Shown: positions 11,857-14,800, counted from the first letter of the stretch. The stretch is 64,000 nucleotides of DNA from an uncultured Veillonellaceae bacterium (GCA_958348245.1 CATVYJ010000005.1:13625-77624), one strand, 5' to 3'. Translations and numbers: made by a program. The notes: a model not told the origin generated them from the sequence alone.

Positions 11857-14800
11857 ATGAACAGAATTTACAAAGTCGTGTGGAACGCGGCGCGGAACGC
11901 TTACGTCGTCGGTTCCGAATTCATCCACAGCAGCCGCAGGGCGGGGGGGGTGGAACAGTAACCGCCGCCTCGCCCGGGCCGCTCTCGCCGCCTGCGCGGT
12001 CTGCACGCTTCTGACCTTCCCGGCCGCGCCGTCCATGGCCGCCGGTGCCACGGCAAGTGAAGGAAATTATCTGGCTTTTTTATCAGATAGCAGCAACACG
12101 GATTATAGATGGGGAAGACCGGTATCGACTAAAACATTTGATGGATACACCTATAATCGTGTGTTGGGAAGTGACGGAAAATATTACTGGGTGCGTGACG
12201 GATATACCATTCAGATTGTAGACGAAAGCGAACGCTTCGATCAGGCGGGACAGAATACGGTCATTCGCACGTATAAGGATAGCGACTGGACCTCGGAGGA
12301 TGCGAAAGGGTTGATTCAATCTTTCCAGAATGTGTCGCAGTCCATGGGAATCACCACACTGAATGGGGATACGCTGTATTCGACGAGCACTTCCGTTTAC
12401 GGTGGGGCTGTCAATACCACGACAACTGGCGTTTCCAGCACGCAGGAATTTTATTTGCAGGGAACCAATTCCAGCAATGCGGTGCATCTCGGCGGAAATG
12501 GCGCATCCTTAAGTTCCCGATTCAACTGGCAGGATGTCTCCTATGATGAGAATACAAAGTTGTATTCTTATAAAGGCCAGGTAGTGTCCAAGAATAATCT
12601 GTATGCCATTACTTACGGGAATACGGTGCGTGTAGGCGTATTTACCAATGCGGACGGGTCTTTGTTTACGGGGGACGTTTACGGAGCTAATAATGAAATC
12701 CTCATGACGGCCACCGATGCCAGCGGGAATTATGTCAGCTATTGGGGCAGTGAAATCGTCGACCCGAATGAAAGCATTGCCAATATGACGGTTTCGGATT
12801 TGCAGGACAAGTTTGATGAAGTCGATGCAAATGTAAAGAAAATTCAGAAAGATGATATCAACCATATTCAGCTGGGAACAACAACTGGCGGCGGGACTAT
12901 CGGGCTTGTCACCAACGGTGGTGCAGAAATTCCCGGCGGCATCACCGTCACCAGCACCGGCGGCACGGGCGGTGAAGATGTGCAGATTACCTTCGCTAAC
13001 CAGACAGACCCCGATGATGAAAGCACCAAGTCCTCTTTCTCCATTAACGCAGGCTCCAAAGTCGTAGCGAATGATACCACCGGCACCAGCAAGGGAACGC
13101 TGAACAGCATTTCCATCAATGGAGAGAGCTATACCCTCGCGAGCGGCGGCGCGTCCGTGACAAGCGGCTCCATTAGTGATACCGGCTATATCAATCTGAA
13201 ACAGGGGGAAACAGATACAACCGGAATCACCCTGGGCGGTCGCCTGCACGACTATGCGCTGGTATCGAATAAAGACGGCGATAAAGATGTGCCGTATACC
13301 GTAAGCGACAACGGCACGGTCACGCTCACCGTACAGGATAAATACAACGCGGATAACAAAGAGACCGTCACCATCAGCGGCATCGCCAGCACGGATGCAC
13401 TGGATGCGGCGGCTGCCAAAGCCACGACAGAAGTTATCGGCAGCGACAATATTACAGTAGGCGATCCGGCGTACGACGAAAAAGATGGTCACGCGATTTA
13501 CAAAGTCGAGCTGAACGACGACCTCACGCTCGGTGGAAAAGATGGACAGAATGGCTCCGTCAGCATCAAAGGCGGTGAAGGAAGCATTTCCGTGACGACC
13601 GGTACGGGCGACAATGCTTCTACCATCAATATCGGAAGCGGCCTTGTAAGCGGACTGACGAATACGACTTGGAATGCGGAGGCCGATTACAGCAAATCGA
13701 CCAACGCGGCGACGGAAGCACAGCTGCAAAGCGCGGTGAGCAGTATAACTACCGCAGTGGATGCGGCGGCGACGGAAGTTGTTGGCAGCGATAATATTAC
13801 TGTAGGTGAGCCGAAGTACGATGAAGAAGACGGTCACGCGATTTACAAAGTTGAGCTGAACGACGACCTCACGCTCGGTGGAAAAGATGGACAGAACGGC
13901 TCCGTCAGCATCAAAGGCAGTGAAGGAAGCATTTCCGTGACGACCGGTACGGGTGACGACGCGTCCACGATTACCATTGGCAGCGGTACGATTACGGGTC
14001 TCACCAATGAGATTACGAATTGGAGCACGTTTGTCAGTGATGATTCTGATGCGAAAACCAGTACGCACGCGGCGACGTTGGCCGAATTGTATGAACTGTC
14101 GCAGCACAGCGTTTTTTATGCGATGAATGGGGATGCCATTGATTATGGCACAATCAATCTGGCCAATTCCTACAGCAACAAATCCGGCGGCACGTTGATT
14201 TATAATGTGGCCTATGCGGTGACCGATGCGAATGCCGAGGGATACAACGGCAGTGCGGCGGTCAATGTGGATTTGCTGAAAGATTATGTGAGCAGTAAAG
14301 TGGAAGCGGCTGCGGGAGACCTGAAAGACACGCATTTGCTTGCCAACCCGGTAGCAGGGAGCGAGGGCGTGTATACGGTGACGGATGACAACAAAATCAA
14401 TTTGGCTGTAGGCACCGGGGAAGAGGGAGACACGCCGACGACGGTGACCATCGAGGACGTGGCCTCTGCAACGGACCTCGGTGATGTGAGCCAGCTGCAT
14501 GACGATCTGAAAGCCGCCGAAGGCGATACGACCAATGTGGTAGACGCCATCAACAAAGTGGACACCAAGGTGGAAGAGGTCAAAGAAGATATTGGAGACC
14601 TGAATTATGTGGAAGGTGAAGCGGGGACAAAAGGCAATGTCGTGACCAATGGCAGCAGTGTGACGGATGCCATTGGCGCACTCGATGCGGCGATTGGAAC
14701 TGCGTCAAGCGATGCAAAGAAGCATAGCTCTGTCATCAGCGGCAGTGATAATATCAAAGTTGATTCCAGTAAAACCAATTCAACTGGCGGCACAGAGTAT

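Follow-up and report, generated by a model that had tools for sequence, protein, structure and literature searches.

A poly-G tract within the extended signal peptide of a trimeric autotransporter adhesin, a probable phase-variation switch in a Dialister-like gut Negativicute

The split adhesin gene

A stretch of 64,000 nucleotides (nt) from an uncultured Veillonellaceae bacterium (GCA_958348245.1, CATVYJ010000005.1:13625-77624), which as a whole is here called the window, carries a gene for a trimeric autotransporter adhesin whose reading frame is broken at a run of G. The ESPR-type leader frame starts at the ATG 11857-11859, reads MNRIYKVVWNAARNAYVVGSEFIHSSRRAGGVEQ* and terminates at the TAA 11959-11961, while in the +1 frame no stop occurs between 11861 and the TGA 15713-15715, and this frame holds, in 1254 codons, the core of the signal peptide, the passenger, the YadA stalk and the anchor. 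Between the leader frame and the passenger frame lies a run of exactly eight G (G8, 11943-11950). Removing one G (G7) or adding two (G10) gives a single open reading frame (ORF) of 1285 amino acids (aa), and G9 does not. An earlier note on this DNA had described the same start and stop, the rest of the adhesin (signal core, stalk and YadA anchor) open in another frame from 11861, and the meeting of the two frames in eight G with a 1285-aa ORF at G7 or G10; all of this was reproduced when it was recomputed. The note had also placed the tract at the junction of signal peptide and passenger, and this position had to be corrected. In fact, cleavage is predicted between SMA and AG at 12040/12041 (placed by eye and not by a predictor), and the tract, at codons 29-31 of the 61 that make up the leader, is part of the extended signal peptide, with the ESPR N-domain before it and the hydrophobic core after it.

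Domain matches were judged by the Pfam gathering cut-offs on the G7-repaired protein. ESPR (PF13018) covers aa 1-45 with 41.5 bits (cut-off 25), and is matched only after the repair; the unrepaired window encodes the ESPR in one frame and the hydrophobic core in another. YadA_stalk (PF05662) covers aa 1103-1136 with 38.6 bits (cut-off 28.4) and YadA_anchor (PF03895) aa 1166-1222 with 46.8 bits (cut-off 22.7), and the anchor resembles the solved YadA anchor PDB 2lme (E = 9e-10). The passenger head gave no Pfam match. Judged from these sequence features, an anchor, a stalk and an extended ESPR signal peptide, the gene product is a trimeric autotransporter adhesin (type Vc). A short coiled-coil periplasmic C-terminal domain is described for Negativicutes trimeric autotransporters in a preprint (bioRxiv 10.64898/2026.01.22.700529), and the C-terminal extension of the present protein is of this type. 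The passenger also contains an internal direct repeat of 251 nt (13425-13675 and 13770-14020, 83% identical), which makes two modules of ~115 aa. The features of the locus are collected in Table 1.

Table 1. Features of the adhesin locus, in window coordinates (A1, leader and promoter alignment of 10 allele sequences; UTR, untranslated region)
Feature	Position	Strand	Basis or remark
Strain-variable island of ~5.7 kb between sbcC and tyrS, holding the adhesin operon	11701..17391		BLAST-mapped junctions; GC 49-56%, below the flanks
Putative sigma-70-type promoter, TTGAAA-N17-TATAAT	11770..11798	+	11/12 consensus matches; hexamers invariant in the 10 aligned sequences
5' UTR hairpin, 20-nt palindrome ATCCCGGCGAAGCGCGGGAT	11813..11832	+	pairs in the UTR fold; all but one base invariant in A1
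Shine-Dalgarno-like GAAAGGGG, 7 nt before the ATG	11842..11849	+	sequence; invariant in A1
ESPR leader ORF in the G8 state, 34-aa peptide to the TAA	11857..11961	+	translation; Pfam ESPR match on the repaired protein
G8 homopolymer, proposed slippage switch; G7/G10 in frame, G8/G9 out	11943..11950	+	sequence; G7/G8/G9 polymorphism at orthologous loci
Remainder of the signal peptide in the passenger frame, WNSNRRLARAALAACAVCTLLTFPAAPSMA	11951..12040	+	translation
Passenger, head and repetitive stalk, highly mosaic between strains	12041..15163	+	translation; allele comparison
YadA_stalk motif	15164..15265	+	Pfam PF05662
YadA-like beta-barrel membrane anchor	15353..15523	+	Pfam PF03895; PDB 2lme
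C-terminal extension of ~63 aa past the barrel (short coiled-coil periplasmic domain type) and stop codon	15524..15715	+	sequence; type per bioRxiv 10.64898/2026.01.22.700529
Conserved 90-aa Cys-rich ORF, 4x CxxC	15728..16000	+	begins 12 nt past the adhesin stop
Predicted strong intrinsic terminator at the end of the adhesin operon	16006..16037	+	14-bp stem, then a T run
Repeat-flanked segment of ~1.1 kb just 3' of the operon	16102-17243		arms 16102-16177 and 17168-17243; 76-nt inverted repeats

Tract length and selection among gut strains

Contigs of relatives were retrieved by way of the adhesin relatives and their cluster-mates, the downstream 90-aa ORF, and TyrS. Seventeen such records, every one of them from a human-gut metagenome, have the order sbcC, adhesin and 90-aa ORF, and with the window the comparison set numbers 18. 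The tract is G7, and the gene in frame, in two records (L013, L014), which encode an uninterrupted ESPR–passenger fusion (protein P0123). It is G8 and out of frame in 12 (the window, L001, L002, L003, L005, L006, L007, L008, L009, L010, L012, L061), and G9 and likewise out of frame in three (L004, L015, L066); in the remaining record (L011) G8-T-GG has become G9 by a loss of 2 nt, again out of frame. The sequencing runs from which these contigs derive include ERR1711759 and that of SAMEA4525181 for G7, ERR14024358, ERR14028565, ERR14023693 and ERR4330058 for G8, ERR14024884, ERR14033983 and SRR7683028 for G9, and ERR14040734 for the 2-nt loss. Merging identical ENA/Logan pairs leaves ~15 records: two G7, nine G8, three G9 and one with the 2-nt loss. 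Retrieval through the 90-aa ORF, which is independent of the tract state, found the gene in frame in two of ten loci. In a protein search, the truncated product of the window and its five close relatives (69-71% identity) were all devoid of the ESPR; more distant Megasphaera-type homologues do carry it.

Three pairs of nearly identical contigs represent three separate allele backgrounds. L001 (G8) and L015 (G9) are 99.96% identical over 7.2 kb, L003 (G8) and L066 (G9) 99.66% identical over 5.8 kb, and L008 (G8) and L013 (G7) 99.955% identical over 6.7 kb; in each pair the sole indel falls in the G tract. The 9.4 kb that follow tyrS serve as a reference: there, 0-4 indels are seen between strain pairs that differ by 90-160 substitutions. 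Relative to substitutions, the frequency of indels in the tract is higher by about two orders of magnitude, which marks the tract as a mutational hot spot. The bases next to the run are mutated among alleles (GGGC, GGAC, GAGC, GGGT) and the G run itself persists.

An ATG further upstream (window 11763) shares the frame of the passenger in the G9 contigs, and from it a gene caller produced a fusion of 1335 aa (P0121) that starts MNIEMGK. G9 as a second ON state was considered and set aside as a probable artefact, because this ATG overlaps the -35 hexamer and would lie upstream of the predicted transcription start.

The run is also exceptional for the DNA in which it is found. The window is 62% GC, and a mononucleotide model predicts for 64 kb ~16 runs of at least seven G and ~10 of at least seven C, yet G8 alone reaches this length; for G/C runs of at least six, seven are observed against ~83 expected from the base composition. 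Moreover, GGG accounts for only ~12% of the Gly codons of sbcC, tyrS, purL and the two oadB genes. Because G/C homopolymers are strongly avoided in the window and the GGG codon is rare, G8, in the leader of a surface protein, stands out as an exception. Chance does not account for the tract.

Indel errors occur most often at homopolymers, and one base parts OFF from ON, so that the gene of the window might in truth be an ordinary intact adhesin with G7, misread in sequencing or assembly. Against this stand the 11 other records with G8, which were assembled independently in different projects and by different assemblers, and the uninterrupted reading of sbcC, tyrS, purL and both copies of oadB; nor does the window contain another G/C run of at least seven that would reveal a systematic fault. 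We consider such an error very unlikely.

Selection was analyzed pairwise on seven sequences from six allele groups. At proportions of synonymous differences (pS) of 0.25-0.54, each allele keeps 1098-1272 open codons past the tract, and the pairwise ratio of nonsynonymous to synonymous divergence (dN/dS) across allele groups is 0.2-0.4. The promoter hexamers and the Shine-Dalgarno sequence are invariant among the examined alleles and the 5' UTR hairpin is nearly so, while in the ESPR codons that precede those adjacent to the tract five of the six substitutions are synonymous. These comparisons indicate that the adhesin gene is under purifying selection and is not decaying. Selection on the ESPR peptide is sensible only if the ESPR is periodically fused to the passenger. 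In addition, the differences in passenger length (1098-1272 codons) and the mosaicism of this region suggest that a recombinational antigenic diversification operates beside the ON/OFF switch.

The same data bear on the possibility that the gene is a fixed pseudogene, a frameshifted and decaying adhesin in which the variation of the tract is incidental. In favour of this possibility, 13 of the 15 merged sequences are out of frame, and the gene is in a dispensable island that is absent from most strains. However, the long open frames carry no second lesion in any allele, even at the highest pS, the dN/dS values are low, the expression signals and ESPR codons are conserved with mostly synonymous changes in the leader, and there are in-frame G7 versions 99.95% identical to G8 versions. 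A pseudogene is thus highly improbable.

Proposed slipped-strand switching, recoding and known systems

The locus has, as far as its sequence can tell, the attributes of a phase-variable gene: a homopolymer in the 5' part of the coding region sets the frame, near-identical strains are polymorphic for it, and the rest of the gene is intact. We regard it as quite probable that slipped-strand phase variation switches the adhesin and that the window was caught in the OFF state. The earlier note had proposed precisely an ON/OFF contingency locus now OFF, and natural length variants together with purifying selection support this proposal. It had also suggested comparing homologous loci in other strains, and at the syntenic gut loci G7, G8 and G9 all occur and near-clonal pairs differ by one G; the uniform G8 that it had associated with a fixed pseudogene is not what the strains have. 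Its other alternative, a homopolymer sequencing error, loses ground with G8 as the modal state of independent assemblies.

According to this model, slipped-strand mispairing in the poly-G inside the extended signal peptide would switch translation. With G7 or G10 the ESPR, hydrophobic core, passenger, stalk, anchor and periplasmic coiled coil read in frame as one precursor of 1285 aa, which could then be exported and displayed. With G8 or G9 the ribosome would stop after 34 codons or enter the third frame, and presumably no adhesin would reach the surface; the first ATG of the passenger frame (12035) would yield a product without a signal peptide. Slippage during replication would add or remove a G far above the background rate, reversibly and within a clone. 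As a consequence, populations would always hold both ON and OFF cells, in a mix set by host immunity or by the need for adherence.

Several points weigh against this model. All the comparison sequences are consensus assemblies of short-read metagenomes, and homopolymers concentrate assembly errors; on the other hand, ENA and Logan assemblies, apparently of the same strains, repeatedly show identical tract states. Since the evidence consists of consensus assemblies, heterogeneity within populations and reversibility are what we infer from it. G8, an OFF state, is modal even in deeply diverged alleles, and this requires that OFF is selected in stool populations or that G8 is expressed to some degree. 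Finally, eight G is at the short end of the tracts that switch fast in bacteria proficient in mismatch repair.

Some expression from G8 is what programmed recoding would provide. G8 would then be the functional allele and make some full-length adhesin, alone or on top of variation at the DNA level, either through slippage of RNA polymerase that loses one G in the mRNA or through a +1 ribosomal slip of tRNA-Gly on GGG GGG G. Across six diverged allele groups G8 is indeed found more often than any other state, and yet the ORF is under purifying selection, and a tRNA-Gly in the P site can re-pair in the +1 frame on a G run. The best documented cases of transcriptional slippage, however, involve A/T runs of at least 9, and the tract is not of fixed length, given the natural G7, G9 and 2-nt deletion, of which G9 would require a different shift. 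Related Negativicutes adhesins need opposite shifts, -1 nt for a G6 run (L016) and +1 nt for a G7 run (L017). Moreover, shuffled sequences fold at least as stably as 11930-12040 (z = +0.70), and a prfB-like context is missing: the TAA three codons past the run is preceded by CAG, which cannot re-pair in the +1 frame. The +1 frameshifting of prfB and the transcriptional slippage of Shigella mxiE likewise rejoin a split ORF at a slippery run, but these sites have a fixed length, a fixed direction of shift and defined stimulators, whereas the present run varies in the DNA. With neither a fixed length and direction nor a stimulatory element, recoding is quite unlikely as the explanation of the locus, and possible as an additional layer.

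A combined arrangement was also considered, in which the island holds two stochastic switches of the one adhesin operon, the poly-G of the leader and the 1.1-kb repeat-flanked segment, and in which a low-expression G8 state makes control graded and not binary. This arrangement is unlikely; within it, the low expression of G8 could be kept up by slippage at the RNA level or on the ribosome.

Slipped-strand phase variation of an adhesin has several precedents. Phase-variable adhesins are textbook knowledge for mucosal pathogens (Neisseria, Haemophilus, Moraxella, Campylobacter). In Neisseria PilC, and in other loci of Neisseria and Haemophilus, a poly-G in the region of the signal peptide turns a surface or adhesion protein ON and OFF by frameshift. 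PilC, however, is a pilus-associated adhesin and not a trimeric autotransporter, and Neisseria and Haemophilus have many such loci, against one tract in the 64-kb window. The poly-G autotransporters of Campylobacter, which is not known to possess mismatch repair, are classical ones (type Va), and Campylobacter, unlike the present host, does not belong to the Negativicutes. Autotransporter genes with poly-G tracts in this other gut bacterium (e.g. capA in Campylobacter jejuni/coli) are reported (PMC7168839). The closest precedent is Hag/MID of Moraxella catarrhalis, a trimeric autotransporter whose phase variation depends on a poly-G tract close to the beginning of the ORF (PMC1931440), and the slipped-strand mechanism itself is already known. 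Hag/MID is a protein of ~2000 aa from a gammaproteobacterial respiratory pathogen, whereas the present gene encodes 1285 aa when repaired and belongs to a gut Negativicute; it further differs from Hag in that the tract is between the ESPR and the hydrophobic core, in that the gene is borne on an island, and in its periplasmic coiled-coil tail.

Among Negativicutes, which are diderm Firmicutes, the Vta trimeric autotransporters of Veillonella parvula are reported to combine an ESPR leader and a YadA anchor with a C-terminal domain in the periplasm, either a coiled coil or SLH, on which their stability depends (bioRxiv 10.64898/2026.01.22.700529; PMC7549365). They share with the present protein the Negativicutes architecture of trimeric autotransporters, the present one having a short coiled-coil tail and a novel head; a text search of the two papers found no mention of phase variation, a homopolymer or a frameshift. 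A search of the literature on phase variation or slipped-strand mispairing in Negativicutes or Veillonella found no relevant report.

The locus would thus be a clean, population-supported example of a phase-variable adhesin in a Dialister-like commensal of the human gut, a known mechanism in an unusual host. Of the assemblies from stool, most are in the OFF state and a minority in the ON state. The case suggests that, among gut commensals, the hedging of surface adhesins is not confined to Bacteroides. This specific tract can be counted directly in existing metagenomic reads, and a version with a tract-locked leader, in or out of frame, is conceivable (e.g. GGAGGTGG). For annotators, a split pair of ESPR and YadA genes in metagenome-assembled genomes (MAGs) of Negativicutes may be a switch and not a pseudogene.

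The operon, its island and further observations

Transcription of the adhesin would start near 11805, as inferred from the promoter, and the palindrome of the 5' UTR could act as an mRNA-stabilising or regulatory hairpin. The 90-aa Cys-rich ORF is called downstream of the adhesin at every locus with a listed gene table and has no Pfam match; its position makes it probably co-transcribed with the adhesin, of which it may be an uncharacterised partner. Its four CxxC pairs give it a zinc-ribbon-like appearance. The upstream neighbours of the operon are sbcD and sbcC, the latter ending at 11654 with a terminator, and tyrS starts downstream at 17516. The host is, by its sequence affinities, a high-GC, Dialister-like Negativicute of the human gut: the closest named TyrS is that of a 'Dialister sp.' MAG (79% identity) and the closest named adhesin anchor that of 'uncultured Dialister sp. 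UMGS766' (75%).

The adhesin operon is held in a strain-variable island. This island is absent from eight of the ten listed places of identical TyrS, including the NCBI assembly GCA_902492475.1; in all eight the spacing between sbcC and tyrS is 168 nt. The junctions of the island show neither an integrase nor a tRNA nor a clear target duplication. The sbcC of the window (7000-11700) is 84-91% identical, with many gaps, to that of island-less strains (L067), against 99% for the tyrS flank, and is 97% identical to the sbcC of the island-bearing L007; the divergence of sbcC may travel with the island.

The inverted repeats of the 1.1-kb segment share a perfect core of 25 nt, ATCCGTACGTGTCCGAAACATACGA. 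The segment has one orientation in the window, L001, L005, L058 and L060 and the opposite one in L003 and L059, the flanks remaining collinear; this difference could reflect an inverton or recombination between the repeats. No recombinase gene was found near the segment. Its interior is highly conserved and apparently non-coding; its ORFs have no Pfam match, and Rfam gave no credible match. The segment is rich in hairpins, with 12 terminator-like sites against 2.3 expected, and many Logan contigs end at or near its left repeat. A module of ~200 nt from its left end occurs twice, in direct orientation, in L077 (2803-3012 and 7364-7458), a related metagenome contig of ~60% GC, in an unrelated genomic context. 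Since it also occurs there, the module belongs to a dispersed repeat family.

Further searches concerned the leader and its relatives. A DNA-pattern scan for the ESPR start gave 0 matches in genome contigs and 0 in JGI metagenome contigs; apparently the species representative is without the island and the JGI data are sparse for this species. Exact look-up of the truncated adhesin of the window (P0001) and of the 90-aa ORF returned no record, and only five short proteins were recovered with the N-terminal 129 aa of the repaired protein as query, the 34- and 53-aa ESPR ORFs of the OFF state not being among them. Two candidates were rejected: L057 (P0128), as a further split ESPR gene, has no homopolymer at the break, and a second G8 in L058 (position 10310), as a control tract, arose by substitution in one strain.

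Other adhesin genes with breaks were also observed. In L016 (8380-8520, UMGS766 'Dialister') a trimeric autotransporter gene is split at its G6 between the ESPR and the hydrophobic core, and in L017 (522-660, the Acidaminococcus fermentans isolate WCA-389-WT-5B) such a gene is split at its G7 at the same junction; the homologues of the latter (L018-L020) are without the G run. A G tract between ESPR and hydrophobic core may thus recur in Negativicutes. The ESPR proteins P0124-P0126 of a related species end at ~120 aa, two of the three with ...YEKK, and one of their clusters is found on 28 contigs; their truncation may be another homopolymer break, in an A-run, of an adhesin gene.

Far downstream in the window, two paralogues of 386 aa for the beta subunit of a Na+-transporting decarboxylase are encoded at 50372-51532 and 59034-60194, 8.7 kb apart. 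Pfam OAD_beta was matched on the first, which was the only copy scanned, and the pair is consistent with a metabolism of the Negativicutes type.

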